Sequence record: CP089609.1
Direction: 5' to 3' (one strand)
Length of the DNA: 64,000 bases
Source of the DNA: a plasmid
In this document: piece by piece, positions 4,840-55,251 of the stretch
How positions within the stretch are numbered: the first letter of the stretch is position 1
Layout of the letters: each line of letters begins with the position of its first letter
The notes under the pieces: generated by a model
The model's input: only the letters and a program-made list of their open reading frames with translations
Databases searched by the model: none
What the model was told of the DNA's origin: nothing
Translations under genes and position numbers: made by a program

Positions 4840-5610
4840 ATGACCGTCCATACGCAGTTCGTAGCGCATACGAAGTCACTCGCGCAGCCGCCGCTGCATC
4901 CCGAGGCGGTCGACGCTCACGCGGCGATCACGGACTATTCGCGGTTCACCGTCGCCCTGGCCGAAGACAATGCCGGCCGCATGCTCTGCTGGCGACCGGT
5001 GGACTGCCCGCACCTTGCTGTCGTCGGCGACTCTGGGTGCGGCCAGACCGTCACCGTCCAAAACGCTGTGGTCCAGTTCGCGCGTGCGCATTGGGCCGTG
5101 CACGTCGCGGCGCGGTTCGACTTCGAGTACGAACAGTTCCGCGCGTGGCCGAATGTGCGGTGCATCGCCACCGATCCGGATACGCAGATCGCGTTGATCG
5201 GCCATCTGAAGCAGATTCTCCGGCAGCGGCTCCTCGCGGGTCGCACCCGTGTCCCTGCGCCGATAGTCCTGCTGGTCGACAACCTCTACGAGCTCACCGG
5301 AAATTTCTCGTTCGCCCACGCCTATTCCGGGACGCCAACCTCGGATCCAGCCACCACTGATCTCCGCCTTCTGCTGCGGTACGGCCGCCGGGCGCGCATC
5401 CATGTGCTGACAGCGACAATGCCCCGGAGCCACGCCGCCCAGCTCGACGGCGAAACCCGTGAGCATTTTGTGGAACTGCCCCTCAGCCGCCGCCATCACG
5501 GGCCCGACTTATCGGCATATCTCGACGAGGACCGCGGATTCATCGCCCACCGCAATCTCGCCGTTCTTCGACCCACGCGCACCAGCTACGAGCCGCTGGA
5601 CCTGAACTGA
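4840..5610 (+). CDS. FtsK/SpoIIIE-like degenerate NTPase-domain protein (Walker A GDSGCGQT with K->Q; Walker-B-like LLVDNLYEL; sensor IHVLTATMPRS)
   Basis: motif-by-motif resemblance to FtsK ATPase core (PHLxVxGxxGxGKS / hhhhDE / GIHLxLATQRP) but with catalytic residues substituted; leaderless start. Confidence 0.6.
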   Translation: MTVHTQFVAHTKSLAQPPLHPEAVDAHAAITDYSRFTVALAEDNAGRMLCWRPVDCPHLAVVGDSGCGQTVTVQNAVVQFARAHWAVHVAARFDFEYEQFRAWPNVRCIATDPDTQIALIGHLKQILRQRLLAGRTRVPAPIVLLVDNLYELTGNFSFAHAYSGTPTSDPATTDLRLLLRYGRRARIHVLTATMPRSHAAQLDGETREHFVELPLSRRHHGPDLSAYLDEDRGFIAHRNLAVLRPTRTSYEPLDLN

Positions 5611-5662
5611 CCGGTGCTGACCTGTTGCAACCCTTTCAGCACCAACGAAACGGAGACCCACC

Positions 5663-6229
5663 GTGACCAATCATGCTGACTTCCCCACGCGTCCAACATG
5701 GTTGACCCGCACCGTGCGTGCGGGTACAGCCCTGGTCCTGAGTGTGGGGTGCTTCGGCGCGGGATGGTGGACCGGCGCGAGGACCACCAGCGACCCGGTA
5801 GCGCACCAGGTGGCCGCCGATATGCAAACGTGCGGCGCATTCCAGGCGATTGACCACCTGGCCGATGAATCGAAGGATCCACTGTCTGGCCCCCACGGGT
5901 CGACGCAGACACACGATTTCATCGCCCTGTCCTCGGCAATGAACAACGCCCGGGCAGCAGAGCTTTCCGACTCGCTCGATGCTGCGGTCACGACCTACGT
6001 GTACGCCCTGGCGAATCTGGGTGCGGTCGTCAACGCCCGGGAGCCGATCGACGACATCGAGTCGATGCGCCTGATCGTGAATCTGAGCGCGCACACCGTG
6101 GCCACGGTATGCCAACGACCAGCCACCGATCGAACCTCGGGGACCGCCGATCACGGTGCCGATGAGGCCGCCACCCAGACGCATCGTGACGTCCACGGCT
6201 CGCAGTCCACAGCCACCGACCACCCGTGA
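5663..6229 (+). CDS. secreted hypothetical protein (signal peptide/TM)
   Basis: GTG start preceded by GGAGA RBS; N-terminal hydrophobic stretch. Confidence 0.45.
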   Translation: MTNHADFPTRPTWLTRTVRAGTALVLSVGCFGAGWWTGARTTSDPVAHQVAADMQTCGAFQAIDHLADESKDPLSGPHGSTQTHDFIALSSAMNNARAAELSDSLDAAVTTYVYALANLGAVVNAREPIDDIESMRLIVNLSAHTVATVCQRPATDRTSGTADHGADEAATQTHRDVHGSQSTATDHP

Positions 6230-6261
6230 CCCTGCCCAACACCCAACCATCGCCGCCGCGG

Positions 6262-6300
6262 TGACAGGATTGGCATGCGCGCCGGCATATACCTGTGGTC
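6262..6300 (+). promoter_or_regulatory. conserved leaderless promoter/start module copy 3 (-35 variant TGACAGG)
   Basis: GACAGGATTGGCATGCGCGCCGGCATATACCTGTGGTC then ATG 6301. Confidence 0.55.
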
Positions 6301-6807
6301 ATGACCAACGAATTCGCTGACCGCACTAAGCCGACCGAGGTCGCCAACCTGGCGGCCTATGCCACCAAAACCGGATGGGCGGTGAGTGTTCTCACGCTCA
6401 AGGACTCCACACACCACGGTATCGACGACCCCCGTATCGACATTGCCTCCACCCCCGACGACCATGTGAAGCTCATCGCCCGCCTCTATGCGCAGATGCA
6501 GCAGCGGGCCGCGGCCGAGCCCTGCCAGGATCCACCGGTTCTCCTGGTCATCGACGAGTACGCCGATGTTTCTTCCGCCTTGGAGAGCTGGAGGCAAGAC
6601 CACCCCGACGCCCAGGCCGGTCGGCAGCTGCGGGAGCTTTTCCGGCTCGGCCGCCGACAGAAGATCACCGTCATCGCCCAGAGCCGGCGGCCCGCACCGG
6701 ACTTCTTCCCCGCTGAGCAGACAGCAGACCTCACCAACCGTCGGGTAGGGCCCGGCGCGCTCCCCTACGCCGTCATCCAGCAGTACTTCGGATCATCGCC
6801 GCAGTAA
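6301..6807 (+). CDS. FtsK/SpoIIIE-like C-terminal half-domain protein (Walker B LLVIDEYADV, sensor ITVIAQSRRPAPD; no P-loop)
   Basis: paralogous to 4840, 9398 and 15556 genes; leaderless start. Confidence 0.55.
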   Translation: MTNEFADRTKPTEVANLAAYATKTGWAVSVLTLKDSTHHGIDDPRIDIASTPDDHVKLIARLYAQMQQRAAAEPCQDPPVLLVIDEYADVSSALESWRQDHPDAQAGRQLRELFRLGRRQKITVIAQSRRPAPDFFPAEQTADLTNRRVGPGALPYAVIQQYFGSSPQ

Positions 6808-6837
6808 TCGGCGCTGCCGATCACACCTGAGCGCGAT

Positions 6838-8835
6838 TCACGAGAGGCCAGGAGCCTCCGCGCCGGCCAGGACGGATCTCAGCAGCGCAGTGGCGGCGGC
6901 CACCTTGGCTGCGGTCTTGGCTGGCGCTGCCGCGGTGTACGTGACACCGGCCAACGTCGCCCTACAGGTGAACCCGTCTTCCTGAGTAGGCCCGGCCGGC
7001 GCGACATTGAACTCCACAGGGCCCAGCGACTGGCTGGCGGCAAAACCCGTCAGCCAGCCGACCGGATTGGCGAAAGCGTTCGTCCGCTTGACGTCGCTCA
7101 TGCTGGCGACTTTTCTGCGAGCCGTTTCCGGCAGGAGCATCTCCCCGACGTGCTCCGGTACAGTCGGCGCCGCCGGCGCCCCGGTCTGAGTCGTTGGCTG
7201 CAGGTTCGCTGGCACCGGGGCCGGCGGATCCGCCGGCCAGGAGACCGCCTCATCGACTGAGTCTGTGTGTCCGCACACCACGTCGAGCAGTTCCCACATC
7301 GCTTGTGTGGAGGCGGTTTTCTTCGATTCCCCGATCTGCCACCGGCCCACACCGTCCCCGAGCCGTGCGCGGGCGGCGAACAGCGGTTGATGGATTGGTC
7401 GGCTCGGATGGTTCTGTATGTCGATCTCGGCGCCCTGATCGGTGCCGAGGATCTGGGATCGACCGCTCAGTGCGCTGGGACCGAATTCGGGGTGCACCTC
7501 ACGAACTTTGGCGAAGAATCGTTTCCGGATGCCATCCCAGGCCGAGCTGGTGGTGGCCAAGCGGGCAATGTCGTTGGCTACCAGTAGATTTTCATCGAGC
7601 CGGCGGCACAGTTCGGCCTCGATTCCCGGCGCGGGTCCGGTGGCGGTCATCAGGTCGAACATCTTGCGCCACTGCTTTTGATCGAGCGCATCGTAGTTTC
7701 GGTCCAGGATGTGTCGCGCGCTGACTTTGCGGCTCATCTGCTTGAAATGGTCGGCGGTCTCGTTTCGTTTGGCGTCGTTGGATGCGTTGATTTCCGTGGC
7801 GATCGCCGCCAGTTCGTCGGAGCTGTAGACGGCCGGTCCTCCGGCAAGGTGATTCCACACAATCCGTTGAGTGATCAGGTCGGCATAGCGGCGCAGTGGG
7901 GAGGTCACATGGGCGTAGGCGGGCAACCGCAGACCGTGGTGCCCTCGCGGCCGCGGTTCATAACGGGCGCGTCCGAAGGTGCGGGTGACCCGCTGCGCGA
8001 GCTGCTCGAACAACCCTGGATCGTGCAGCGCCGCAGCGAGGTCGGCGGCGATTTCGCGGCCATCGCTGAGCAGGTTGGATTGGTGATTGCGGTAGAGGAC
8101 TTCCAGTCCCTCGTCGATGCACCAATCGGCCAGGGCGCTACTGGCTGCGACCATCAGTTCGGTGTTGATGAGATATCCCACGGTGCGTTGAGCCGGGGGA
8201 ATTTCGGTGAGTTGGCCGTCCTCGGTCACGGTGATTCCGTGGACGAGGTCGTACACGGTGGCCGCACCGGCGGCTGAGCGTCTGGCGAACAGCTGCTGGG
8301 CCAGCCGGTGCGCGGCGTCGAGCATCGGGTTCAGCTGATGCCCTTGCTCATGCAGCACCTTGGGGACGTCCTTGTAGGACAACCGTATGCACGTCCCGGC
8401 GGGCAGAAAGCTCTGGCGCACCGACACCTCGGTGCGTTGCCCGGTGGCATCGAACACCGCTGCGATGGTCAGTGCCGAGCGATCCAGACGGTCGGACAAT
8501 GTGACCTCACGCTCGACTTCGCCGAGCATCGGAATGGTTCTACGTGGCAGATATCGTGAGGCCACCCGGGCCCGGGCCAGCCGATCGTGCTCGCTGTCGC
8601 GCGCGATAACAGCCGCTGTGGCGGCGACGTGAACGGTCAGATTCCATCCTCCGTCAGCGATGGGCTCGACGGTCAGGGCATCGTCAAGGTCGATACTGCC
8701 CGCAGGATCGATCATCACTGCTGACCCGCGCCATTGTCGGCCGGACGCGTTGGGGCAGCTCGCGGTCGCAGTTGGACCGGGTGCTGGTGTCGAGTGGATT
8801 TCGGTCACGGTTTCGGCAGGTCGTTCGCAGCGCAC
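6838..8835 (-). CDS. RNB-family 3'-5' exoribonuclease (RNase II/R-like) with C-terminal dsRBD-like domain
   Basis: RNB hallmark HVTSPLRRYADLITQR and DLDDAL motif; C-terminal GPVEF...GFTC...G...A.AKTAAKVAAATALL resembles a double-stranded RNA-binding motif; no N-terminal CSD/S1. Confidence 0.7.
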   Translation of the reverse strand: MRCERPAETVTEIHSTPAPGPTATASCPNASGRQWRGSAVMIDPAGSIDLDDALTVEPIADGGWNLTVHVAATAAVIARDSEHDRLARARVASRYLPRRTIPMLGEVEREVTLSDRLDRSALTIAAVFDATGQRTEVSVRQSFLPAGTCIRLSYKDVPKVLHEQGHQLNPMLDAAHRLAQQLFARRSAAGAATVYDLVHGITVTEDGQLTEIPPAQRTVGYLINTELMVAASSALADWCIDEGLEVLYRNHQSNLLSDGREIAADLAAALHDPGLFEQLAQRVTRTFGRARYEPRPRGHHGLRLPAYAHVTSPLRRYADLITQRIVWNHLAGGPAVYSSDELAAIATEINASNDAKRNETADHFKQMSRKVSARHILDRNYDALDQKQWRKMFDLMTATGPAPGIEAELCRRLDENLLVANDIARLATTSSAWDGIRKRFFAKVREVHPEFGPSALSGRSQILGTDQGAEIDIQNHPSRPIHQPLFAARARLGDGVGRWQIGESKKTASTQAMWELLDVVCGHTDSVDEAVSWPADPPAPVPANLQPTTQTGAPAAPTVPEHVGEMLLPETARRKVASMSDVKRTNAFANPVGWLTGFAASQSLGPVEFNVAPAGPTQEDGFTCRATLAGVTYTAAAPAKTAAKVAAATALLRSVLAGAEAPGLS

Positions 8836-16981: not shown

Positions 16982-18076
16982 ATGACCGCCGTCACTGATG
17001 TGTTCAGCGAAGACGAACTCGAGGCCGCCATCGGCAGCGGGTTCATCGAGTCTTTCCGGCATCCTCAGCTGCCACTGACCATCTACAACTACACCGAACG
17101 CGCCCAGTTTGAGACCGCCTGGAACGCCGCCACCCGCGCGTGCCGGGGCCTCATCGTCAACGACGATCGCCGGATCGTCGCCCGCCCCTGGGCGAAGTTC
17201 TTCGAGTACAAGCCGGTAGGCGGACAACACGGCCCCGTGGACCTCGACGCAGCTGTCGAGGCCACCGATAAGGTCGACGGATCTCTGGGCATCCTTTACC
17301 CCGCCGGCCACACGTGGGCGATCGCCACCCGTGGATCCTTCACCGGCAACCAGGCCGCTCACGCCACCACCCTCTATCAGCAGCGCTACGCCGGCGCCTG
17401 GTCCCCTGATCCCGAACTGACCTACTTGTTCGAGATCGTCTATCCGGACAACCGGGTCGTCCTGAACTACGGCGACACAGACGATCTCGTCCTTCTCGGC
17501 GCTTGCCGCATCGCTGACGGTGCATCCGTTACAGCAAGTTCGATCGGCGACTGGCCGGGGCCGCGTGCACAGACTCTGCCGGTCACAACCCTTCGCGATG
17601 CGTTGGCCTTCCCAGACCGGGCCAACGCCGAGGGCCTCGTGGTGACCGTGGTGGAATCCGGCCTCAAACTCAAACTCAAACAACGCGATTACGTACTCCG
17701 GCATCGCATGGTCACCGGGATGTCGGCGCTGGCGGTATGGGAGTACTTGGCCACGGGTGCGGGGATTTCAGGTCTGATATCGGATGGGCACCTTCCCGAC
17801 GAGCTCCACGACTGGGCCCGCGCCGTTGTCGCCGAGCTGCAAGGCCAGCATCTCGCGCTCAAAGATGCCGCCGAACAGGCACATGCAGAGATCATCGCGC
17901 GCCTCGAACCCGGGCACACCCGAAAGGACTATGCCGCCGAGGCTGTCAAACACGCTGACCTGAAAGGCTTCCTGTTCGCGCTCGCGGACGGGCGCCTGGA
18001 CAAGTTCGAGGCTGCGTTGTGGAAGTCCGTTCGACCTGATGCCAACGAACTGCGCTCCGAAGGGGCTTCCCGATGA
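16982..18076 (+). CDS. ATP-dependent polynucleotide (RNA) ligase-like nucleotidyltransferase
   Basis: motif I KVDGS, motif IV EGLVV, motif V LKLKLK; N-terminal RGLIVNDDRRIVARPWAKFF typical of Rnl-type RNA ligases. Confidence 0.7.
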   Translation: MTAVTDVFSEDELEAAIGSGFIESFRHPQLPLTIYNYTERAQFETAWNAATRACRGLIVNDDRRIVARPWAKFFEYKPVGGQHGPVDLDAAVEATDKVDGSLGILYPAGHTWAIATRGSFTGNQAAHATTLYQQRYAGAWSPDPELTYLFEIVYPDNRVVLNYGDTDDLVLLGACRIADGASVTASSIGDWPGPRAQTLPVTTLRDALAFPDRANAEGLVVTVVESGLKLKLKQRDYVLRHRMVTGMSALAVWEYLATGAGISGLISDGHLPDELHDWARAVVAELQGQHLALKDAAEQAHAEIIARLEPGHTRKDYAAEAVKHADLKGFLFALADGRLDKFEAALWKSVRPDANELRSEGASR

Positions 18077-18642
18077 ATCACCAGCCGCCCCGCCCCGCCT
18101 CGACCAATCACGCACCCGCCGAGCGTGGCCTCGCCCCTATACTCGGAACTTTCCCGTCTGTCAGAATCGCACTGTTCGGGCCCCGAGTCTTGTTCGCCTA
18201 CCTGGGCGCGATGAACACGCTCTACCTCATCGGCTACATGTTGGCGGCCATCTTTCCCCGGCCCCCTGCCACCATTTTGGAGTACGACACCGCGGGCGCC
18301 ATGCTGTCGGTTTTCGGCGAGGTTTTCTCCGGAATTCGAGATTTTGCCGCGCAATGGGCATTCTTCGGCGCCACGCCTTCTCCCCTCGTCGCCGGCGGCC
18401 TCGTCGTCTTTTCCCTGATGTGTGGTCACGCACTGGCGACCATGTCCCGGCCCGCCCGCCGACGGCCCGAACTTGTCGAACGCTTGATTCAGCTCCCAGA
18501 CGTGGCTGCCGATAACGGCGACCAGCTCGGCGCCGTGGACGCCAAGGATCGGGCCCAACGGACACGCGGGACAAGATCGCCGACGTACATGCCGCCCTGT
18601 CCCAGCTGGATGCGGAGTGGCTTGCTTACACCATGGACGTGA
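18073..18642 (+). CDS. integral membrane protein
   Basis: ATGA overlap with ligase gene; multiple hydrophobic helices. Confidence 0.45.
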   Translation: MNHQPPRPASTNHAPAERGLAPILGTFPSVRIALFGPRVLFAYLGAMNTLYLIGYMLAAIFPRPPATILEYDTAGAMLSVFGEVFSGIRDFAAQWAFFGATPSPLVAGGLVVFSLMCGHALATMSRPARRRPELVERLIQLPDVAADNGDQLGAVDAKDRAQRTRGTRSPTYMPPCPSWMRSGLLTPWT

Positions 18643-19097
18643 CCGCCTACTACCTCACCAAACCTGTTCTGCGGGACGCCGATACACCGCAGACTGCGGC
18701 ATACCAGGCCGCGCTCTACGAGTTGCGTGAGCGCTCAGAAGGCCTCGGCGACCATTCCAGCGACAGTCAGATCCAAGCCGCCGAGAAGGCCGCGGACTCA
18801 GCGTTGCAAGCGTGGGCGACAGCCAACGACCATGCTCTGACGGTCGGTGTCAGTGATCGCAGCCCGACCGAACGGGCCGCGCTGCGCCGTCTCCACGCTC
18901 TGATCGGCCAGTTGAGCGACCCAGCAACACCGAAGCCGATGCGCGACACCATCGTCGAGGCGATGGCCCGCGAAATGGACAAGCTGACCACGGTTCCCGC
19001 TTCACGGGAACACCTGGCGGCTTTGCCGGCATTGGCGGGACGCAACTTCGACGCAATCGCGTCCGGCCGGTCGAAGCAGCCGACTGTTGAGAGATGA
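18633..19097 (+). CDS. hypothetical protein
   Basis: 154-aa ORF. Confidence 0.45.
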   Translation: MDVTAYYLTKPVLRDADTPQTAAYQAALYELRERSEGLGDHSSDSQIQAAEKAADSALQAWATANDHALTVGVSDRSPTERAALRRLHALIGQLSDPATPKPMRDTIVEAMAREMDKLTTVPASREHLAALPALAGRNFDAIASGRSKQPTVER

Positions 19098-20680: not shown

Positions 20681-21603
20681 ATGTCCACCCGCTGGTTGAG
20701 CCCCTTGCGGTACCCCGGCGGAAAAGGGCGCATGGCCGACGCGTTAGCCGACGTGTTCCAACAGCAGTTCGGTCTGCTCGACGTCGAAGTATGGGCCGAG
20801 CCATTCGCCGGCGGCGCGGGGGCCGGACTGCATCTGCTCGATCGCGGCGTCGTCGACGAGGTCTGGCTGACCGAGAGAAACCCGGCCCTGGCCGCGTTCT
20901 GGCGCACCACCACCACCAACAGCGACGAACTGGCCGCGCGGGTCCGCACATGCCAACCCGACATGTCCACCTGGCACGCCGCGCGCGAGATCGTCGCGGA
21001 GGCGCGGACTGGCGCCGAGATCGCCGATCTCGACCTCGCATTCGCCGCCCTTCTCATCAACCGGTGCTCACGTTCAGGCATGGTCAACCCCAGTGTCGGC
21101 CCGATCGGCGGCAAGAACCAGAACGGCCGCTGGCACCTTCGCTCCCGATGGAACCCCGAGGGCCTGTCCGAACGCATCGATTCGATCGGACGGCTCGGCA
21201 ACCGGATCCGCGTCAGCGAAGGAGATGCGATCACACACATCGCGGAGTTGAACGGATCGGTGGGCATTGAGCACGAGCTCCTGCTGTTCGTCGACCCGCC
21301 CTATCTGGTCCAGGGCAACAAGCTTTATCACGACGGTATGACCTTCGACGACCACAAGAACCTCGCCGAGGCACTACCAACTGCGCAGCTCGCTGGCTGC
21401 TCACCTACGACAGCGACGAACGCATCCTCGGCCTCTATCCGGGCCATCGCATCCTGGCCTACGAGATCGCCCACACCGCTAACCAGGCCCGCATCGAAGA
21501 GGAATACGCGGTCCTATCCGACAATCTCGCGGTCCGCGACGACCAAAACCTACTCACCACGGGCGCATCCCGATGGGTCCAGCACGAGCCCACGCACAAC
21601 TAG
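20681..21603 (+). CDS. Dam-like N6-adenine DNA methyltransferase (D12 class) with apparent -1 frameshift near 21385
   Basis: LRYPGGK and FVDPPY motifs in first frame; C-terminal ARWLLTYDSDERI...stop TAG 21603 in second frame. Confidence 0.6.
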
Positions 21604-21629
21604 TCCACCCCGCGAGGAAGGAAACCCGC

Positions 21630-21860
21630 ATGTCAACACCCACCGGCGACCACGAATGGACTAGCGAAGCTGTCGACGGCGCATCTCTAGTCCACCTGGC
21701 CCGCCTCGCAACGGCCGGCGACCAGACCGACATCGTCATGTACGTCCGCAGGCAGGCACACCGGCTCCGCACCCGGGCCCCACAAACGTCACAAGCGCTC
21801 ACCGCACTGATCGACGGAGCTGCCCCGCCTCCCAGCCCGCTACGTGGTGCAGCAACATGA
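21630..21860 (+). CDS. hypothetical protein (76 aa)
   Basis: GGAAGGAAA RBS then ATG 21630. Confidence 0.45.
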   Translation: MSTPTGDHEWTSEAVDGASLVHLARLATAGDQTDIVMYVRRQAHRLRTRAPQTSQALTALIDGAAPPPSPLRGAAT

Positions 21861-26653: not shown

Positions 26654-27547
26654 ATGAACAGCAGCATCGACATGCACGGCACGCCAAAGCAAGCCGACTA
26701 CGCCCGCCGAGCCCTAGCCCGCTATACCGAACGTTCCGTACCAAGGCCCGCAGTTCAAAATCCGGGCGAAGACGAGTACGTGACATTCAACGGCGGATGG
26801 CTGCACGCTATCGCCATCGACGAGGACGTGTTCGCACCCGAGTTTGTCACCGAGCTGCGCGACAAAGTGATCGGCGACCTGATCCACCTCACAGAGGAGC
26901 AACTCTCCGAAATCGCTCCCTCAGCCGAGCTGGATCCCGCTGTGGCCGGCCCTGAATTCCTCCACGAAGAGCTCGTGGAAGCGGACTGGGGCGTGGATGA
27001 CGAAGGCGTATTGATCTACATCGAAATCAAAGACGTCTACTTCAAGATCGACAGCGAAGGCCGCATCACGGGCTGCTCAGACGTCGCCAGCGTCGATACC
27101 TTCATCACCGACGCGGGCGCCAACTGCGTCATTCGTGCCATTCACCACCCGGCTGACGTCTTCGGCGCAACAGGAACCCCACTGCGGACCGCTTTCGACC
27201 TTCTCGAAGATCTCGATTCTGACCTCGACGCCATCAACGCCGCCCGACAAAATCTCCTGGCGGACAAGGGCATTGAATTCGGAGATCCCCGCTCGCTTCA
27301 TCAGCGCAGCGGCACGTACACATGTCGGGTGAACGCTGCAGAGAAGGCGCTCACTTCAGCTGGACGAAACGCACGCTTTCCCAGGTCATGCTGCCACGGA
27401 GACGAGTACCTCGCGATCGCCGCACGCGACCTGATCGGCAGTGCTCCGGACTGGACCTGGGACGCCTACGAACTCATCGCCCGCCCGTACGCGGAAGCCA
27501 CAGGCCGCAAGCTTCACCCCGCCGACCCCGATTGGCTAAGGGTGTGA
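26654..27547 (+). CDS. hypothetical protein
   Basis: 297-aa ORF. Confidence 0.5.
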   Translation: MNSSIDMHGTPKQADYARRALARYTERSVPRPAVQNPGEDEYVTFNGGWLHAIAIDEDVFAPEFVTELRDKVIGDLIHLTEEQLSEIAPSAELDPAVAGPEFLHEELVEADWGVDDEGVLIYIEIKDVYFKIDSEGRITGCSDVASVDTFITDAGANCVIRAIHHPADVFGATGTPLRTAFDLLEDLDSDLDAINAARQNLLADKGIEFGDPRSLHQRSGTYTCRVNAAEKALTSAGRNARFPRSCCHGDEYLAIAARDLIGSAPDWTWDAYELIARPYAEATGRKLHPADPDWLRV

Positions 27548-27666
27548 CCGGCGACCAAGTGCACCAGCACGTGTGCCTGTCGAGCCCGGGCTGCCAACGC
27601 TTCGCACTGCAATGGCGCGTGGCCAGCACATAACCCACCCGGACCAGGAAGCGAGCCCCACTGTTG

Positions 27667-28660
27667 TCAGGCGGTGGGAATAGTGCGGAGCGCGTTCATA
27701 ATTGCCGCGTTCTCCCGCGCAAAGTTGAACACAGTCGGCGGTGCCAACCATCGGCCATCATCTGGCACGTCAAGTGCGGCTGACGCGGGGCGCATCACGA
27801 GAACATGGTGAGACCCAGCCGCTCGCCCCAGCCCCACCCGGTAGCCGACATTGCCGATCAACTGACGCATATCCTCTTCGCAACGGTCACTGTCGCGAGG
27901 GTTCAACCAGGACAGGACGTGTATGCCCAGACTCGCGCGCGCCTCGGCCGAACCTATCCGCTCCAGGGGAAACATGGAGCTCGCGACGCCGCGGCCGACC
28001 GGTGCATCGATGATCGCCACCAAATCTGGCAACACCGGCGCGTCCGGGGCAGGTCGGCTTGCCTGTACGCGCCGATGCTGTCCACGCAATATGCGGCCAG
28101 AATGTCTTGGCGCCGTTGATACTCGCACCGGAGCACCTCACCGAGCTCATCGACAATCGGCGATACTCCCGCTCCAAACGGATCGTCGGCGCTCGGGGTG
28201 CGCATCCAATGCTGCAGAACGTGAGGCAGTCCCGTCGGCAGGTCCGCAAAAGTGCCCTGTCCAAACGCGTCTAGATCCGCCAGCAGTAGATTGACCCGCT
28301 TCGGGAGTACTGCAAGCAGAGCGCCGCCGCGGCGGCGGCGAGGAGAGTGCTTTTGCCGAGACCCCCACAACCTCCAGCAACGAGGCCGAAGATCAAGCCA
28401 GGTACCCCGACGGTGACCACGGCCCCGTCTTCGTCGTAGCCCACCGGGATCTGCAACTCTGAGTCGTGCTCATGGGTCCGCCAGACACCGGCGGGGTCGA
28501 AACCTCTGGTAGTGATACCGAGAGCTTCAGCGAAGCTGGGCACGATGGACGTCCGAGTGACAGCTCGGGCTGCATCGCGATATTCGCCGCCATACTTGGC
28601 TTGGTGGGCACGCGCGGCTTCTTTGCGGGCATTGTTTCGCTGGCGGGGATGATTGGTCAC
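27667..28660 (-). CDS. ParA/MinD-superfamily P-loop ATPase, reading frame split over three frames (two apparent 1-nt indels)
   Basis: P-loop GGCGGLGKST (frame 1), LLADLDAFGQ (frame 2), DLVAIIDAPVGRG (frame 3); GTG 28660 preceded by GGAGG. Confidence 0.5.
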
Positions 28661-29094
28661 GAGAGGCCTCCATTGCTTACCTTCGGGCGCACCCCACACA
28701 TGCAGTCCCAGATGACAACGGGGCGTTGTACCGCGTCGCCCGAAGGGCGGGGCCCCAACACAACAATGCCTGGTCGGGATTGCCGGTGCGGGCGGCACAG
28801 ACCGGACGAAGCTGGGGGTACGCCGCGCGGTGCGACGATGCGCTCCAGCCTATCGACGCGGCCACCGATTTCAACCCATGTCTGATCGCGCGCCTGACCG
28901 TTCGCTGGGTGACGCGGATCGTGAGGAACCAAGTTCCATGTGGTCTACACCGCGATCACTGCGACCTATATCGTCGAGCTCTACCAGGTCGAGCACGCCG
29001 AAGGCGGCCACACACCATCAGGGCGCCGGCCGGGTGGCAGATCGGACGGAAGCTCAGACCTGTTGGCTGGCTGTGGGATGCTCACCACTCGCAC

Positions 29095-29116
29095 TATACA
29101 CCGCCTCAGGTGTATA
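29095..29116. promoter_or_regulatory. palindromic operator copy 5 (TATACACCgcctcaGGTGTATA)
   Basis: 8-bp arms; ~100 bp upstream of deaminase-fusion gene. Confidence 0.55.
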
Positions 29117-29213: not shown

Positions 29214-30628
29214 GTGGTTACCAAGGGCCCGGAACTGGTCATCGGTCTCGTCGCACCGCTGGGCACGAGCACCACCGAACTCGCCACCGAAGTCAAAGGC
29301 GCACTGGCGGCGTACGGCTACAAGCCGGTCATCATCAAGATGTCTGACCTGATACCCGGATCCGGCCCGCTCGGTGAAGCAGAAGATGACCGGATCCGCC
29401 GGCTTATCGCTGCCGGCAATGCCTTCTGCAAAGCAAACGACGATGACCCGGCCGCCCTGGCCCGGCTCGCTATCAACAGAATCCGCGCCAGCCGCATCGA
29501 CCTGCTACGCCAAACCGGCGATACCCGTCCCACCGAGGACCTGGTCATCGGTGGCCGGCCACGCACCGCCTACATCATCCAGTCACTCAAGCGGCTCGAC
29601 GAAGTCCAGCTTCTGCGCGAGGTCTACGGCAGCCAGTTCATCCTCCTGGGCAGCCAGGGCACCCTCGAACAGCGCACCGCCAGCCTGATGCGGTTGAGCC
29701 TGTCCTCGCTGCCCGAATCCAGCCGCCGTGATCTGGTCAAACTCCTGATTCAGGTCGACGCCAAAGACGACGACCCGCTCGGACAGAACGTCAACGCCAC
29801 CTACCCGCAAGCCGACTTCTTCATCCGCAACAACGCCCGCAGTGAGATCGACAGGGCGATCGGGCTGCTGTTCGGAGCTTCCATCGCACCCGAGATCGGT
29901 GAATTCGCGATGTATGTGGCCCGGGCCAGCCGCGCCCGTTCCCTGGCCGCCAGCCGCAAGGTCGGCGCAGCGATCGTCGTCGGCGACGCAGTCGTTGCCA
30001 CCGGCTACAACGACGTCCCCACGGCCAGGAGGCCGACATTCTCGAAGGCGTCGACACCAGTGAACAGTTCAAACGCGACAACCTCTCAGACACTCTCCGA
30101 CGTCTCAAGTCCGCCGGCATGCTCAACGACGCCGTGACCATCGACGAGGCCGCCGTCTCCGCGGCCGCGGCCGCTCTCAAAGGTGGAGACCTGCTGAGCG
30201 TGATCGAATACCAGCGCGCCGTCCACGCCGAGGCCAGAGCCATCGACGACGCCACCATCCGCGGCGTCTCCACCGTCGACGGCATCCTCTACGTCACCAC
30301 CTTCCCGTGCCATCTCTGCTACAAGCACGCCCTGTCGGCACGGATCAAACGCGTCGAATACATCGACCCCTATCCCAAGAGCCGAGCCGTCCAGATGTAC
30401 CCCGTGGATGTCGAAGAACGACTCATCCCGTTCACCGGCGTCGCACCACGCCGCTACTTGGAGATTTTCGACGACCGCCCCGCACCCCAATCGGACGAAT
30501 CAGGGAGATTCCCCACACACGACCCGAGCGTCGCACAGCCACTTGTCGGACCCGTGAGCGAAGATGACAGCCGAGCCGACAAAGAACGCCGCGCGATCCA
30601 CCGGTTGAAGGAGCAGTACCGAACATGA
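29214..30628 (+). CDS. kinase-like N-terminal domain fused to cytidine/deoxycytidylate deaminase domain (dCTP-deaminase-type antiphage protein candidate); apparent -1 frameshift in CCCC run at 30017-30020
   Basis: deaminase zinc motifs HAEARAI and PCHLC; N-terminal deaminase segment KVGAAIVVGDAVVATGYND lies in upstream frame; adding one C restores continuous ORF. Confidence 0.6.
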
Positions 30629-30798
30629 CGCCACTACCAGGCCTGACCCCTCAGGACCGCGACTACCTGGCCAGATCAGCTGCCGACTTCAGCGACATCG
30701 ACGCCCGGACCCTCGCAAGAATCGACGCGGGTTTCGAGCGCGCGCACCAAACCGCACGAGGGATCGCCAACGGATTCCTCGACCCACTGACGCACTGA
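30625..30798 (+). CDS. small hypothetical protein (57 aa)
   Basis: ATGA overlap with deaminase gene stop. Confidence 0.35.
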   Translation: MTPLPGLTPQDRDYLARSAADFSDIDARTLARIDAGFERAHQTARGIANGFLDPLTH

Positions 30799-41433: not shown

Positions 41434-41468
41434 GAGGCCTCCCGCCGGCGGGGGGCCTCCTTGTTTTC
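41434..41468 (+). terminator. Rho-independent terminator (GAGGCCTCCCGCC/GGCGGGGGGCCTC + CTTGTTTTC)
   Basis: 13-bp GC-rich stem followed by T-tract; lies between tnpB and convergent 41467..41922 gene. Confidence 0.45.
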
Positions 41469-41922
41469 AATCCCAGTACGGTGTGCCCAGCACGTCGGGC
41501 CGGCGGCCTTGCGCGCGGGCCACGTACTCGCGGCGGTAGAGGGAACTTGCCGGAATGTCGAGGCCTTGGAAGTGCGCGGGCCGGTCCAGTCCGAACAGTT
41601 CACCGAGCTCCGCGCAGTCCTCATCGCTCATTTCGTCGTATTCGCCTCGCCGCGCGGGTGGGGCGACGATCTTGATCCATCCCCAGGTGGTGCCGCGGCC
41701 GCCGCGCACGCTCCAGCGCTTGGTGCTGCGTTGCTTGAGGGCCGCACGAATCTTGGTGATCGCTTCGTCGCGGTCCAGCGACTGCACCGACACAGCTGGC
41801 GGCTGCGCGGCGCCCTGGGGCGGATCCTGGTCGGCCGGGTTGGGCACCAGCGACAGGTGGCGGCGGGTCGGCACGGTCAGCACCCCTTCTCCCAGCTCAC
41901 GCGTATACGTTTCGAACAGCAC
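41467..41922 (-). CDS. hypothetical protein
   Basis: 151-aa ORF; operator copy 8 lies 5 bp upstream of its start. Confidence 0.5.
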   Translation of the reverse strand: MLFETYTRELGEGVLTVPTRRHLSLVPNPADQDPPQGAAQPPAVSVQSLDRDEAITKIRAALKQRSTKRWSVRGGRGTTWGWIKIVAPPARRGEYDEMSDEDCAELGELFGLDRPAHFQGLDIPASSLYRREYVARAQGRRPDVLGTPYWD

Positions 41923-41996: not shown

Positions 41997-42019
41997 TATA
42001 CGCCGCCGTGGGTGTATTG
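41997..42019. promoter_or_regulatory. palindromic operator copy 9 (TATACGCCgccgtgGGTGTATTG)
   Basis: 9 bp upstream of 42028 gene. Confidence 0.45.
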
Positions 42020-42027
42020 TGTTGTGC

Positions 42028-42327
42028 ATGAGCCCCGCCGTTTTCCTCATCTGTGGGATAGCCATCGCCGCAATCAGCCTTCTGTCGGACCGCAAATTCG
42101 ACACCTTCCTCGGGATGATCGCCGGTGCCATCGGGGTCCTTCTGGGAAGCGCAGTCACCCTTTATGGCACGTACCAGCTGGCCACGCCGCTCGGGCGGGT
42201 AGTGCTGATCACCGTCACGCTGGCCGGCCTGATCTGGATCAGTTACCACGTCGTCACCTACTGCCTCGACGGGAAACGGGCTTCCACCGGGATGCACGCC
42301 GCCGCCCGACCCGGCACCCATGGCTGA
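42028..42327 (+). CDS. small membrane protein
   Basis: 3 hydrophobic helices. Confidence 0.45.
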   Translation: MSPAVFLICGIAIAAISLLSDRKFDTFLGMIAGAIGVLLGSAVTLYGTYQLATPLGRVVLITVTLAGLIWISYHVVTYCLDGKRASTGMHAAARPGTHG

Positions 42328-46042: not shown

Positions 46043-46693
46043 ATGGAAGGCTCGGTTTTCCTCCAACAACCGGCCCCGGTCGAGTTGTCCACGGCAGACC
46101 GAATTCGCGATGCCGCGATACATTGCTTTGCCACACAAGGCATCAGCGCAACCACCATGCGCGCCATCGCTCAAGCCGCCGGAGTAGCACACGGCCTGCC
46201 ACAACACCACTTCGGCAACAAAGCCGGCCTGATCGCGGCCATCGACGACCACGTGCTGCGCGTCTTCAGCCAAGCCCTCGAATCCAACCCACTACCGGTG
46301 CCAACAGAGCCGACCGACGACTTCAGATCCCTCGGCGGCCGATTCTCCAAGCTCATCCACGACCACCCCGACGTCGTCGACTACGTGGGCCGCGCACTCG
46401 GCGAAGGCAACAACATCGGCGCCGTAATCTTCGACGGACTGCTCAAGATCAGCGCCAGACAGCGCGACACCTTCACCGCTGCCGGACTCACCAGGCCTGA
46501 CCTCGATCCGGACTATGCCGCCCTCAACCCGCTGATACTGCGCCTAGGCGCGATCATGCTGCGCCCCCACATCGCCCGCCACATCGACGGCGCGTTAACC
46601 ACACCCGCCGAGCTGCAACGCTGGGACGCCAGCGTCACAGCGCTAATTCGCCACGGCCAGTTCACATCCGACCCAGCAGAACACAGCAGCTAG
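46043..46693 (+). CDS. TetR-family transcriptional regulator
   Basis: HTH RIRDAAIHCFATQGISATTMRAIAQAAGVAHGLPQHHFGNKAGL; divergent from hydrolase gene. Confidence 0.75.
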   Translation: MEGSVFLQQPAPVELSTADRIRDAAIHCFATQGISATTMRAIAQAAGVAHGLPQHHFGNKAGLIAAIDDHVLRVFSQALESNPLPVPTEPTDDFRSLGGRFSKLIHDHPDVVDYVGRALGEGNNIGAVIFDGLLKISARQRDTFTAAGLTRPDLDPDYAALNPLILRLGAIMLRPHIARHIDGALTTPAELQRWDASVTALIRHGQFTSDPAEHSS

Positions 46694-48063
46694 CGACGTG
46701 TGACGCGGGCCGGGATCGGCCCACCCGGCACCATCGTGAACGGCACCGCCAGCGGGAAATCGTCCTCCAGCGAGGACAGCTTCACCCGACGCACAATCGA
46801 GGCCAACGCCAGCGTCGCCTCCAGCATGGCGAAGTGATCACCAATGCACGACCGGGGCCCGCCACCGAACGGCACGTACTGCCAACGATCCAGCTTCTTC
46901 ATGTTCTCCGGGGTGAATCGCTCAGGATCGAACCGCAGCGGGTCCTCCCACAGCGTCGGGTCACGTTGCACCGACATGCGGCCGAACACCAACATGGTGC
47001 CCGCCTCAACCCGGTATCCATCGACCTCCACGTCCTCGATCGCCATCCGCGTCCCCGTCGGCCCCGGCGGGCACAACCTCAAGGCCTCCCGAAGAACCTG
47101 GACGGTGTATCCGAGCTGCTCAACATCGCCCGGCGTCAGTAACCGATCGCCGATCTGGGCGACTTCGGCGTGCACGCGTTCCTGGACTTCGGATTGGCGC
47201 CCCAACTGCCACAACGCATAGGTCAGCGTCGTGGCCGTTGTGTCATGGCCGGCGAACAGGAAGATCACCAGCTCATCGCGAATCTCGTCATCAGTGAGCG
47301 GTTGCTTGGTCTCCGGGTCACGCGCGGCGATCAACGCCTGTACCAGCGGCGCATCCAGGTCGGGATCGGCACGGCACGCGCGCACAATGTCGGCGGCCAG
47401 CCCCCGAATCGTCGCTGCTGCTTCCAGGGATCGCCGCCGCGTCGGCGTCGGCAACCACGCCGGGGCGTGCAGTGGTTTCAACGCCCGGCGCACCGCGTAA
47501 CTGGTCGCCACCCGCAGCGGCTCGGCCACCACATCGGCCCGCTCATCCAGATCAAGGCCCAGCACCGAGCGGCCCAACGCACGCATCGTCAACTGACGCG
47601 CTTCGGCGTCCAGGCTGATCTGCGCGCCGTCGATCCACGCCGACACCACCATCTCTGTGGCCTCAGCCATATGGGCGCCGAAAGAATCCACCCGCTTCTT
47701 GGTGAAAACCGGTTGCAGTGTGCGCCGACGTGGTAGCCATTCCTCATGCGGCAACACAAATAGATTCCCGCCGAGCAAACGCCGAAGCTCTCGCCCCACT
47801 CCGCTGGTCTTGTCGATCGAGCCGTCGCGGACACTGACGATGTCGCGGATACCTTGAGGTGAGGTGGCTAAAACGATCGGTGGCATCAGCCAACGCGGGC
47901 CGAGGCTGAACCGGGTGACGGGGCCACCGGCGTCCCGAAGAATGTCGGTGCCGGTGTGAAAGTTCCGCAAAGCGTCACGTCGTTGCTTGTACGGCAGCGG
48001 ATTAATCGGAGCCAGCGGAAGATCCGCGACAGTTTGCTTACGCGCAGTCTCGGTCACGCGCAC
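46690..48063 (-). CDS. cytochrome P450
   Basis: heme-binding signature FGGGPRSCIGDHFA; ExxR present. Confidence 0.85.
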   Translation of the reverse strand: MRVTETARKQTVADLPLAPINPLPYKQRRDALRNFHTGTDILRDAGGPVTRFSLGPRWLMPPIVLATSPQGIRDIVSVRDGSIDKTSGVGRELRRLLGGNLFVLPHEEWLPRRRTLQPVFTKKRVDSFGAHMAEATEMVVSAWIDGAQISLDAEARQLTMRALGRSVLGLDLDERADVVAEPLRVATSYAVRRALKPLHAPAWLPTPTRRRSLEAAATIRGLAADIVRACRADPDLDAPLVQALIAARDPETKQPLTDDEIRDELVIFLFAGHDTTATTLTYALWQLGRQSEVQERVHAEVAQIGDRLLTPGDVEQLGYTVQVLREALRLCPPGPTGTRMAIEDVEVDGYRVEAGTMLVFGRMSVQRDPTLWEDPLRFDPERFTPENMKKLDRWQYVPFGGGPRSCIGDHFAMLEATLALASIVRRVKLSSLEDDFPLAVPFTMVPGGPIPARVTRR

Positions 48064-48137
48064 ACCTCCCTTGCGTCGGACATAGTCTACGACCGAGGCC
48101 TTCGGCGCCCCGGTGCCGAATCAGTGAAGGAACACCC

Positions 48138-50290
48138 ATGCAGACCGCTTACACCGCACGAGTTCTCGACCCAACCCAGCCCGGCGACAACGCCCTGCTC
48201 GACGAGCTCCGCGCCGACCCGACATCGACTTCCTCGACGACCACGACGCCCAGCTGGAAAGTCTGCGCGCACTTCGCCCCGCACCGCCCGAGGAGCTGCT
48301 GGGCGAAGATCGACGATGGGCCTACTACCCGTGGCGGCGTGCAGTCGTGGCTGTGCTCGGCCCGCGGGGATTTCAGGCATTGCGGCTCGATCGCAATCGC
48401 AACAACATCACGGCTGAAGAGCAAACCAGGCTCAGCACTCTGACGATTGGTGTGGCTGGTCTCAGCGTGGGCCACGTCATCGCCCACACGCTGGCCGCCC
48501 AAGGGCTCTGCGGCAAACTGCGCCTGGCTGACTTCGATCACCTGGAGCTGTCCAATCTCAACCGGGTGCCGGCCACGGTCTTCGACCTTGGCATCAACAA
48601 GGCCGTCGTCGCGGCCCGCAGAATCGCCGAGCTCGACCCCTACCTACCCGTCGAGGTGGTCGACACCGGCCTCAACGCCGACACACTCGACGACTTCCTC
48701 ACCGGACTCGACATCGCCGTCGAGGAATGCGATTCCCTCGACATCAAAGCCCTGCTGCGCGTCGCAGCCCGCGACCGCAAGATCCCGGTGCTCATGGCCA
48801 CCAGCGACCGCGGCATCGTCGACGTCGAACGATTCGACCAAGAACCCGAGCGCCCGATCCTGCACGGACTGCTCGGGCAACTCGACATTGATCTTCTGCC
48901 CGGCATGACCAGCCGCGAAAAGATCCCCCACGTGCTGCGTCATCTGGAAGCCGAACGCCTGTCGCCCCGCACCGCAGCATCCCTCATCGAGATCGACCGC
49001 TCCCTGTCCACCTGGCCACAGCTGGCTTCCGACGTCATCATCGGCGCGGCCGCGATCGCCGAAGCTGTACGCAGAATCGGACTCGGCGAAGAACTCCGAT
49101 CCGGCCGCAGCCGCATCGACGTCAGCTGGGCGCTGGGCCAGATCCACGAGCCCGACATGGCGCATCGCTACGAAACGACCACCGACGAGCCGAACACCCC
49201 ACAGGCTCTCACCGGCGGCCCACTCGAACACCTCGCTACAGCCGCCATGCGCGCGCCTTCCGGCGGCAACACTCAGCCCTGGCAGATCGCTCTCACCGAA
49301 GACTCCATCACGGTCGGTATCGACCCCGACCACACCTCGACCATGGACATTGAGTTCCGCGGCAGCGCCGTCGCCCTGGGTGCAGCACTGCTGAACATCA
49401 CGATCGCGGCCGCCGAACACCACGTGCTCGGCCCCATTACGGTCACCGATGCCGGCAGAGCGCCGCTGCAGGCCACTATGCGCACCACCGCCGGCGGCGA
49501 CGATCCCGCACTCGCGCGCCTTTACAAGCCCATGCTGGCGCGCGAATCCAACCGCCACCACGGGACCCCCAAGCCGCTCGACGACACCACCATCACAGCG
49601 CTCACCGCGGTGGCCGAACAGCACAACGCACGGCTGCGCCTTCTCACCCAGCGTGACGACATCGCCCAGGCCGCAACGATCCTCGCTGCGGCCGACCGGA
49701 TACGATTCCTGACCCCACGCCTACACCAGGAGATGATCTCCGAGCTTCGCTGGCCCGGCGACCCGGACCCCGACACGGGCATCGATGTCCGCAGCCTCGA
49801 ATTCGATCCCGGCGAGATGGCCGTCCTCGATGTCCTACGTCGCCCCGACGTCATGGAACAACTCGCCGAATGGGACGCCGGATCCGCACTCGGCGACGAC
49901 ATGCGAGACCGCGTCCTGGCCAGCTCAGCTCTCGCGGTCGTCACCGTAACCGGCAACGACCTACGCGCCTACGCCGCGGGCGGGTCAGCAGTCGAAGCCG
50001 TATGGATCGCCGCTCAACAACAAGGATTCGGCGTCCAGCCGGTATCCCCAGTCTTCCTCTACGCACACACACAAGCCGAACTCGAGGAACTCTCCGCGCC
50101 CTTCGCGACCGAATTGGCCGAATTGCAAAGCGAATTCAACATTCTGACGAACCTGGGACCAGACGAATCGATCGCCCTGATTCTGCGGCTGGCCGTCGCA
50201 CCGCCGGCATCGCTACCGAGCCGACGCAACATCAGCCGAGTACGTAGCGCAACGACAACAACCCACCCACTCTCCAAGGGACCTTGGTGA
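48138..50290 (+). CDS. ThiF/MoeB-like E1 domain fused to nitroreductase-like domain (MoeY-like); apparent -1 frameshift in CCC run 48218-48220
   Basis: Rossmann LTIGVAGLSVGHVIAHTLAAQG; nitroreductase-like SGGNTQPW; N-terminal 26 codons in frame 0 then frame 2. Confidence 0.6.
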
Positions 50291-53768: not shown

Positions 53769-54250
53769 ATGATTGGCGGTATGGGCATCACCGCAGATCA
53801 AACGATCCTGCCCCGGACGTCGATTCGAGCAGCCAAGCTCTGCTCGACAAACTCGCCGACCTTCTCAACGGCGATGCCGAGGTGTCACTGACCACCGCAG
53901 ACGGACGTTCCGTCACGCTCCCCGAGGAGCTGCGCGCGGTCCTGGCACACGCTGACGCAGCCCTCAGCCAGGGACAAGCCGTTACCGTCGAACCACGCCG
54001 CGTAGTTCTGTCCACACAAGAAGCCGCCGACATTCTCGGCGTCTCACGACCAACACTGATCAAGCTGCTCGAATCGGGTGATATCCCATTCACCAAACCC
54101 AACAGACACCGCCGCCTACTCCTGGCCGACGTCCTCACCTACCAGCAACAAGTCCACACCCAACGCAGCACCATCCTGTCCGAGATGAGTGCTGAGGCCG
54201 CAGAACACGACGCCTACGGGAAACTCTCCGAGTTCACCGAAACCCGTTGA
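53769..54250 (+). CDS. Xis/MerR-type HTH antitoxin (VapB-like partner of PIN gene); apparent -1 frameshift in CCCC run 53811-53814
   Basis: C-terminal LSTQEAADILGVSRPTLIKLLESGDIPFTKPNRHRRL HTH; stop overlaps PIN gene start. Confidence 0.55.
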
Positions 54251-55251
54251 CCGTGACCAAGATCCGCGTCCTCCTGGACGCATGTGTCCTCGTGCCCTAT
54301 CAGTTGGCCGATCTGCTCATGCGCCTGTCCGACGACGAACTCTACGAACTGCTCTGGTCGCAGCAGATCCTCACCGAAGTCGGACGCAACCTCGTCAAAC
54401 TCGACGTCCCACCAGAGAAGGCAGCTCGACGCATTTCCCAAATGCGCGCCGCGTTCCCACACGCCGTAGTCGACGGCTACGAGGATCTCATCGACGCGAT
54501 GCGAGTCGATCCGAAAGACCGCCACGTGGCTGCGGCCGCGGTCCGCGGCGGCGCCGCCATAATCGTGACCGCCAACCTCAAAGACTTTCCACCAAATACA
54601 TTGGCACCCTACGATATTGAGCCTGTCCACCCCGACGAATTCCTACTTGATCAGCTCGACCTGGCCGAACAATCGACGATCGAATGCCTCCAGAACCATC
54701 GCACCGCCTACACACGGCCTGCCTTCACGATCACCGAGTACTACCTGGCCCTGGCCAGGACCGTCCCCAAGTTCGCAGCAGCCGCGAGCCGAGCTGAGAT
54801 ACGGTTCGGCGGGTGGCCGACCGCCGGCCCACTGCCGATCGAAACCGACCCAAGCGAATCCGGCGCGGCCGCACTCTTCGAAACAGCCGGACCACCTGGG
54901 ACAACACCGATGAGCGCTGCAGCAATTTGGTTCACCGCCCTCAATGATCGCGCGCAATCCGCCGACGTCCTGGCCGCCCTGACTCTCAACCCCGCCCTCT
55001 GGGGGAAATTCGAGACCGCCGCCAACATGCTCGCTGGCTGCGGCCTGGCCAACATCGTTGAACGCTGCCCCGGACACGACGACATCCGCTACCTCAAATT
55101 CGTTCCCCACATCGAACAGTCGGGACGCGCATTCACCACTGTCGCACTGGAAAACGCCAGGATCCTCACCATGGTGTTGCGCCCAGACGGCATCTGGCGA
55201 GCCTGGGGCCTGACCGAGCACTTTCCAGATGCCCGCGACATCAAGAGCTGA
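54247..55251 (+). CDS. PIN-domain (VapC-like) protein with long C-terminal extension
   Basis: VLLDACVLVP N-terminus and DRHVAAAAVRGGAAIIVTANLKDF PIN C-terminal motif. Confidence 0.7.
   Translation: MTVTKIRVLLDACVLVPYQLADLLMRLSDDELYELLWSQQILTEVGRNLVKLDVPPEKAARRISQMRAAFPHAVVDGYEDLIDAMRVDPKDRHVAAAAVRGGAAIIVTANLKDFPPNTLAPYDIEPVHPDEFLLDQLDLAEQSTIECLQNHRTAYTRPAFTITEYYLALARTVPKFAAAASRAEIRFGGWPTAGPLPIETDPSESGAAALFETAGPPGTTPMSAAAIWFTALNDRAQSADVLAALTLNPALWGKFETAANMLAGCGLANIVERCPGHDDIRYLKFVPHIEQSGRAFTTVALENARILTMVLRPDGIWRAWGLTEHFPDARDIKS

Follow-up and report, generated by a model that had tools for sequence, protein, structure and literature searches.

The Escherichia coli enzymes AW1.7 and U09 have been found to convert deoxycytidine triphosphate (dCTP) into deoxyuridine nucleotides upon phage infection, which depletes dCTP; both domains of these proteins are needed, the exchanges G29A and C30A in the nucleotide-binding motif abolish defence by the E. 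coli enzyme, and homologues of sparse distribution have been reported in Actinobacteria (Tal et al., bioRxiv 10.1101/2021.04.26.441389). DcdV of Vibrio cholerae deaminates dCTP and deoxycytidine monophosphate (dCMP), is toxic without its inhibitor DifV, by which it is restrained, and has been likened to a toxin-antitoxin system. DcdV and its homologue from E. coli H10407 lower both dCTP and dCMP, DifV inhibits both enzymes, and S52K inactivates DcdV, in which the Walker-A position is held by a residue other than lysine (Hsueh et al., bioRxiv 10.1101/2021.03.31.437871). Here we describe a gene of this type at positions 29,214 to 30,628 of a plasmid-derived stretch of 64,000 nucleotides (sequence record CP089609.1), which in the following is called the window. 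We consider it probable that this locus is an intact DcdV-type anti-phage dCTP deaminase, carried as cargo by a mycobacterial mobile element, coupled to a small protein and seemingly broken only through the under-calling of a run of five C. Judged by its sequence, the gene clearly belongs to the published anti-phage dCTP deaminase family, within which it is diverged. What is new is an actinobacterial clade that lies under the equivalog cut-off of the family, together with a conserved gene pair; otherwise, this is a known defence family.

The break in the reading frame

Two open reading frames (ORFs) have been found at the locus, both on the plus strand: 29214-30137, in frame 0 with a GTG start, and 30119-30628, in frame 2. 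Their third codon positions are high in G+C, as is the case for real genes of this window (63.5% G+C). Shortly past the motif GYNDVP, frame 0 turns out of frame and then ends; frame 2 is open from 30017 on. When the CCCC run (30017-30020) is lengthened by one C, the result is a single protein of 471 amino acids, which is terminated by TGA (30626-30628) and whose N-terminus is in line with that of the homologues (MxTxGPELVIGLV). All strings quoted in a preliminary description of this DNA (ELVIGLVAPLGTSTTEL, RKVGAAIVVGDAVVATGYNDVP, AVHAEARAIDD and FPCHLCYK) have been recovered in the translation.

For the comparison with relatives, an exact look-up of the intact neighbouring protein (26654-27547) has led to 23 public short-read contigs. 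Six of these (L006-L011), each from a different run, have been compared with the window, which they match over 8.5-18 kb at 99.92-99.95% identity. CCCCC, the 471-residue deaminase gene and a 331-residue FtsK/SpoIIIE-like gene are present in every one of them, and a 94-97% identical relative (L001) likewise reads CCCCC and holds the 471-residue gene intact, as the preliminary description had anticipated when it ascribed the broken frame to a single missing C in this run. The repaired protein is identical to that of L006 (12563-13978), with one synonymous difference in the DNA, and its exact sequence has been found on 14 public contigs; an exact sequence look-up has given no match for the truncated product of 307 residues. 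Over the gene, the window and the L001 allele differ by 24 synonymous and 3 non-synonymous codons, and the same bias is seen 3' of the frame break (9 synonymous, 2 non-synonymous).

Relative to L006-L011, the window holds six private indels over 21 kb, each consisting of a deletion by which a G/C run has lost one base (18568, G4 to G3; 24229, C5 to C4; 25759, C6 to C5; 28046, G5 to G4; 28303, G4 to G3; 30017, C5 to C4), alongside four private substitutions. Of these deletions, four lie in coding sequence and break three genes, namely the FtsK-like gene (twice), a gene of 341 residues and the deaminase, all of which are intact in the six independent assemblies. The FtsK/SpoIIIE-like gene (27604-28798, minus strand), which is divergent from the deaminase gene, is cut into three ORFs by the contractions at 28046 and 28303 and is intact in L001 as well; the ORFs 18073-18642 and 18633-19097 (plus strand) are one 341-residue gene in L008 (1417-2442) and are separated in the window by the contraction at 18568.

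One-directional contraction of G/C homopolymers is a signature of long-read consensus error. Because all private indels are one-directional deletions in G/C runs and intact alleles occur in near-identical contigs, the frame break is very probably an assembly artefact, a one-base under-call of a C5 run, and the real gene would be intact. A genuine frameshift, by which the deaminase would be a recently inactivated pseudogene, for example after counter-selection of a toxic enzyme in the strain, appears unlikely by comparison: the window as given does read CCCC, its two ORFs are not readable as one, and loss is common among defence genes with toxic potential, but the six deletions against four substitutions fit consensus error and not mutation, three genes are hit, one of them twice, that are whole in every independent assembly, and the coding sequence equals the intact allele apart from the one synonymous change. 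Homopolymer frameshifts do occur in mycobacteria, which to our knowledge are devoid of canonical mismatch repair, and this has to be counted in favour of the pseudogene. Programmed -1 ribosomal frameshifting, or phase-variable switching, at the C run would agree with a break inside a homopolymer and with a downstream frame that is open to a normal stop; every relative examined (34% to 99.9% identity), however, has its coding sequence in a single frame, in which either C5 or unrelated codons are used, and five other G/C runs in the window have been contracted likewise, intergenic ones included. Such a mechanism is exceedingly improbable and has effectively been refuted already by the intact relatives.

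The systematic homopolymer error probably affects the whole record, and other 'pseudogenes' in the window are therefore to be distrusted. As the artefact would break at least two neighbouring genes too, annotation of the record would under-report intact genes. A polymorphism of another kind has been observed at 24362, where the public contigs themselves differ between TT and T (L006 and L009 versus L007, L008 and L010) and the window has the short allele, as three of them do. The public contigs also differ in the called start of a helix-turn-helix-DUF4926 gene (265 versus 303 residues).

Family membership and the two domains

The PADLOC search that had been suggested when the locus was first described has matched the dCTPase model PDLC02373 with E = 1.3e-115 and 385.7 bits, with residues 4-468 of the protein covering profile positions 151-550 of 630. 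Residues 7-421 match the NCBIfam profile NF041025, 'anti-phage dCTP deaminase' (E = 1.8e-85, 287.4 bits), and residues 235-383 the Pfam family PF00383, dCMP_cyt_deam_1 (E = 4.5e-14, 52.6 bits against a cut-off of 25). In a tblastn search of plasmids, 65% identity has been found to a 'deaminase' on plasmid pMYC1 of Mycobacterium adipatum, and E. coli and Vibrio genes that RefSeq lists as 'anti-phage dCTP deaminase' or 'deoxycytidylate deaminase' have been matched with 30-32% identity across ~88% of the length. A scan of a genome collection has given one locus only, a diverged one, and no near-identical DNA for the locus has been found in plasmid and phage collections; the 90% cluster that includes the protein has members named from Mycobacterium sp. 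SWH-M3 and Mycolicibacterium conceptionense.

End to end, the protein has been aligned with the E. coli H10407 p58 protein and a Vibrio nigripulchritudo protein, the sequences of AW1.7 and DcdV themselves not being included; the p58 protein used is WP_000951932.1, which differs from the accession WP_096882215.1 cited in Hsueh et al. The alignment has revealed common motifs in both domains (G..G[T/C], LK.xEE..LR, GQ, SR.VGA, HAE, PCHxC and GV.PR), and together with the family profiles it bears out the match to described dCTP-deaminase defence proteins which had been drawn from the letters alone. Invariant in 48 homologues are E7, G17, K126, R127, E130, D182, Q191, H338, A339, E340, P365, C366 and C369.

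For the N-terminal part, the preliminary description had proposed a nucleotide-kinase fold with a degenerate P-loop and had named an unrelated N-terminal fold as what would overturn its reading. A nucleotide-monophosphate-kinase fold has indeed been obtained in the AlphaFold2 model of residues 1-225 (predicted local distance difference test score, pLDDT, 94.8), although the domain extends over ~225 residues and not the ~270 that had been assumed. The loop GLVAPLGTS sits after strand 1, as a Walker-A-like loop with Thr at the position of the canonical lysine; G11 is near-invariant (at least 90%) among the 48 homologues, and G17-T18 aligns with G-C of the p58 protein and with G-T of the Vibrio protein. 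Because relatives carry Cys or Thr at this position and mutants of the motif lose function, the degenerate P-loop is a family trait and not a sign of decay. With the Walker-A lysine missing, phosphotransfer is therefore doubtful.

The C-terminal part is, as had been proposed from its HAE and PCxxC motifs, a zinc-deaminase domain by Pfam match, motif conservation and fold. The AlphaFold2 model of the full-length protein has a pLDDT of 92.3, and Foldseek has placed the C-terminal domain closest to the dCMP deaminases of Streptococcus mutans (2hvv), human (2w4l), phage T4 (1vq2), cyanophage S-TIM5 (4p9c) and chlorovirus PBCV-1 (bi-DCD, 7fh4), with template modelling scores of 0.63-0.81 on the target. 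These metabolic enzymes have the deaminase fold and the catalytic motifs in common with the window protein, and from this resemblance one may ask whether the gene encodes a metabolic dCMP deaminase that supplies the element with deoxyuridine monophosphate and deoxythymidine triphosphate for its replication, in the manner of phage-encoded dCMP deaminases. The nearest solved structures, from bacteria, humans and phages, would favour such a role; those enzymes, however, are single-domain proteins of ~140-190 residues, whereas the window protein of 471 residues holds two domains and, unlike them, a helical insertion (about residues 270-330) that separates the second strand from the HAE helix. The TIGR02571 ComEB model reaches 46.5 bits against a cut-off of 219, and the fused lysine-less kinase-like domain as well as the full-length match to the defence family also argue against a metabolic enzyme, which we regard as very unlikely.

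A MafB19-like polymorphic-toxin deaminase has been considered and rejected: the match to PF14437 (34.7 bits, cut-off 27) lies beneath the stronger match to PF00383, and the N-terminal part is kinase-like and not a secretion or trafficking module.

The small downstream gene, the upstream palindrome and the host element

The deaminase stop overlaps, within ATGA, the start of a 57-residue ORF. Relatives of this ORF have been found by tblastn directly 3' of the deaminase gene in Mycobacterium sp. IS-3022 (L002, E = 3e-20), on M. adipatum pMYC1 (L005, E = 3e-20), where it is unannotated, in Rhodococcus sp. AD45 (L012, E = 3e-17) and on a metagenomic actinobacterial contig (L013, E = 3e-9); the remaining flanking genes called or annotated at these four loci are unlike those of the window. 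In the reverse direction, the gene of P0144, a relative of the small protein (L017), lies behind a deaminase gene of 57% identity and overlaps it by 4 nt. Another relative of the small protein, P0141, of 133 residues, has no deaminase within 3 kb, and the linkage is therefore not absolute. ORFs of 61-73 residues stand at the same position behind the deaminases of L014, L015 and L016 (45%, 43% and 34% identical), and a C-terminal LDPL motif is common to the small ORFs of L014 and L015. In the two gammaproteobacterial loci checked (L003, L004), the ORF has not been found. A full HMMER search with the 57-residue protein has given 15 representatives among 1.84 billion proteins; a word-indexed search, too insensitive a method, has given two matches.

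It is conceivable, though we put this forward tentatively and at clearly less than even chances, that dCTP-deaminase defence in actinobacteria is a two-gene system, in which the coupled protein of ~57-66 residues with its C-terminal G-x-L-D-P-L would act as a labile inhibitor or an infection sensor, the protein counterpart of the Vibrio DifV RNA. If so, current defence-finder models miss the small partner, as they treat the system as a single gene. The downstream ORF is in any case a concrete, testable candidate for what keeps the enzyme silent in actinobacteria.

Upstream of the deaminase, a perfect palindrome has been found, an operator-like site of the form TATACACC-N6-GGTGTATA, of which the window holds 13 copies versus 0.02 expected (up to 3 mismatches). 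The copies of (T)ATACACC-N6-GGTGTAT(A) lie at 1460, 9055, 10377, 15225, 16888, 19123, 29095, 31974, 34774, 41927, 41997, 53339 and 61296, most of them ~0-160 bp upstream of plus-strand genes and several ~300 bp off; two are inside ORFs according to a rough gene call, and two stand between the divergent genes 41467-41922 (minus) and 42019-42327 (plus), which are candidates for an autoregulated repressor. The gene thus does stand behind a palindromic operator copy, as had been noted at first; this copy, then numbered the fifth, is the seventh of the 13, the earlier number depending on a list of its own. The palindrome upstream of the deaminase is kept in L001, but the deaminase genes of the diverged loci L002 and L005 are not preceded by it, which assigns it to the regulon of the host element and not to the deaminase family.

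The upstream DNA is unrelated in L002 and L005. A simple promoter scan has given no sigma-70-type site upstream of the deaminase, the upstream 200 nt show no unusual RNA fold compared with shuffled sequences (z = -0.79), and no Rfam RNA family has been detected anywhere in the window. On the public contigs, the stretch from the divergent FtsK-like gene to the deaminase holds no called gene, the coding potential of its mechanical ORFs not having been tested. An upstream RNA or ORF resembling DifV is not supported on these grounds, with no unusual leader fold, no Rfam match and an upstream region that is unconserved between diverged loci; an upstream RNA non-homologous to DifV may still be present.

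Based on its gene content, we read the window as the backbone of a plasmid or conjugative element, a mobile element of Mycolicibacterium type. It holds two small FtsK/SpoIIIE-like ATPase genes, and small ATPases of this kind are typical transfer proteins of actinomycete conjugative elements. Genes related to IS607/IS605 are present, no tRNA genes have been found in the window, and a PHROGs scan has given no phage structural genes, which rules out a prophage as the context; a defence island has been ruled out too, as no defence system is adjacent. A cytochrome P450 gene beside a ThiF/E1-like-nitroreductase fusion ('Rv1355c family' in plasmid annotation, with weak PADLOC E1-E2 matches) occupies 46690-50290 and is ~79% identical to a Mycobacterium dioxanotrophicus plasmid; this P450/TetR/ThiF-nitroreductase block is common to mycobacterial plasmids, which other parts of the window match in patches only. 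Relatives of the deaminase are likewise found on plasmid pMYC1 and beside integrases or insertion sequence (IS) elements.

Several predicted toxin-antitoxin-type modules are present on the element: PIN-domain and Fic/Doc-domain proteins are encoded at 54247-55251 and 56352-57275, and ~59997-60617 resembles the PemK/MazF toxin region of a Mycolicibacterium farcinogenes plasmid. From this company, one may suppose that the deaminase and the 57-residue protein form a toxin-antitoxin-like addiction module which stabilises the mobile element, with defence not the main role. Such a module would agree with the conserved overlapping gene pair, with the toxicity of DcdV when its inhibitor is missing and its likening to a toxin-antitoxin system, and with the occurrence of the pair on plasmids and mobile elements amid PIN, Fic/Doc and MazF domains. 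However, a role in addiction would not preclude one in abortive-infection defence, defence against phage is established for the characterised relatives, and neutralisation of the enzyme by the small protein has no support here; addiction as the main role appears improbable, and we retain the anti-phage deaminase as the preferred assignment.

Further genes of the window are a Dam-type N6-adenine methyltransferase (20681-21664, plus strand; PADLOC PD-Lambda-5_B, E = 3e-63), which also resembles type II or orphan methylases and has no recognised partner gene beside it, an RNB-domain exoribonuclease (6838-8835, minus strand) with a weak C-terminal dsRNA-binding motif under the Pfam cut-off, and a homologue of the T4 Rnl1-type RNA ligase (16982-18076, plus strand). 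The exoribonuclease and the RNA ligase are unusual cargo on a mycobacterial mobile element. Relative to the window, L001 has an IS605-type insertion (5565-7247; Y1 transposase and TnpB/OrfB) just past the small ORF and, upstream of the deaminase, ~2.2 kb with a DUF6884 gene (1398-3607; compare 28895-29014 of the window), both absent from the window.

Table 1. Position of the deaminase locus and its parts within the window
Feature	Position	Strand	Remarks
Perfect palindrome TATACACC-GCCTCA-GGTGTATA	29095..29116	.	98 bp upstream of GTG; operator-like site of host element
5' part of deaminase gene	29214..30020	+	Frame 0, GTG start; codons 1-269 of repaired 471-residue protein; ORF list and repair
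N-terminal nucleotide-kinase-like domain, residues 1-225	29214..29888	+	
Walker-A-like loop GLVAPLGTS, residues 11-19, without canonical lysine	29244..29270	+	Conservation and alignment
Zinc-dependent dCMP/cytidine-type deaminase domain, residues ~228-421	29895..30475	+	PF00383, Foldseek
CCCC run, site of frame break, one base short of all relatives	30017..30020	+	CCCCC in L001, L006-L011
3' part of deaminase gene	30021..30628	+	Frame 2; codons 270-471 plus stop
H-A-E catalytic motif, residues 338-340	30224..30232	+	Invariant in 48 homologues and in gammaproteobacterial alignment
P-C-H-L-C zinc-binding motif, residues 365-369	30305..30319	+	P365, C366, H367, C369 invariant
57-residue ORF, ATG overlapping deaminase stop (ATGA)	30625..30798	+	Conserved downstream partner; tblastn

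Proposed function and comparison with described systems

Homology, fold, motifs, an intact allele in near-identical DNA and a conserved gene pair have been shown for the locus, whereas its role against phage, its substrate and trigger and what the small protein does are inferred by analogy with the characterised enzymes. In a single polypeptide, the kinase-like domain devoid of the Walker-A lysine would most likely serve nucleotide binding or regulation and not phosphate transfer, and the C-terminal zinc deaminase would bind zinc through H338, C366 and C369 and shuttle protons through E340. By comparison with the E. coli and Vibrio enzymes, the protein would be kept inactive in the uninfected cell, and upon phage infection it would deaminate dCTP (and dCMP) to deoxyuridine nucleotides, by which the phage polymerase would be starved of dCTP. 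In actinobacteria, the deaminase gene appears to be translationally coupled to the protein of ~57-66 residues, which may be a regulator or inhibitor of the enzyme in place of the upstream DifV RNA of Vibrio.

Several observations weigh against an intact, small-protein-coupled anti-phage deaminase. The window sequence as given does carry a frameshift, to judge from the literature searched, phage challenge has not been reported for any member of the actinobacterial clade, and no other recognised defence system adjoins the deaminase gene in a PADLOC scan of its neighbours. The equivalog cut-off of NF041025, set at 400 bits, has not been reached; for this reason RefSeq calls the M. adipatum relative just 'deaminase', as it does the mycobacterial relatives in general, and the score therefore speaks for a diverged clade of deduced anti-phage activity and not for a proven functional equivalent. 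With respect to the gene pair, the 57-residue ORF, on which the two-gene arrangement in the window rests, has no Pfam family, and a profile built without L014-L016 detects the ORF of L014 weakly (E = 0.035) and those of L015 and L016 not at all, which leaves for these two a small ORF at the same position. If the assignment holds, it adds a mycobacterial member, borne by a mobile element, to a defence family known so far from studies of Gram-negative bacteria alone, and it has a bearing on phage therapy of non-tuberculous mycobacteria, as plasmid- or island-borne defences could narrow the host range of phages.

Compared with described systems, the N-terminal domain has an identity of only 16% to the adenylate-kinase-related protein of Sulfolobus (3lw7) and, unlike this protein and other nucleotide-monophosphate kinases, it lacks the Walker-A lysine. 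The E. coli enzymes AW1.7 and U09 and the window protein are alike in the succession of an N-terminal kinase-like domain and a C-terminal zinc cytosine deaminase with HAE and PCxxC, and in a nucleotide-binding loop formed by Gly and a small residue instead of Lys (G29/C30 in the E. coli enzyme, G17/T18 in the window protein). The window protein is ~30% identical to the E. coli plasmid homologues compared, the sequence of AW1.7 itself not having been aligned, and is shorter, with 471 residues versus 576 in the E. coli system; compared with the enterotoxigenic E. coli p58 and Vibrio proteins, it is devoid of an N-terminal extension and of an insertion of ~21 residues after the GYNDVP strand. Also unlike the E. 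coli system, the gene in the window is followed by a conserved small ORF.

With the DcdV-DifV system of V. cholerae and the homologues from E. coli H10407, Proteus and V. parahaemolyticus, the window protein has in common the architecture of a P-loop-kinase-like and a deoxycytidylate deaminase domain as well as the location on mobile islands or plasmids, and the E. coli H10407 p58 gene aligns with it from end to end. Both domains are needed in DcdV, whose Walker-A position is S52, and this position is a non-lysine residue in the window protein too. The two systems differ in the putative partner of the enzyme: DifV is a small RNA (or a small ORF) located 5' of dcdV, whereas the partner in the window is an overlapping small protein gene located 3' of the deaminase.

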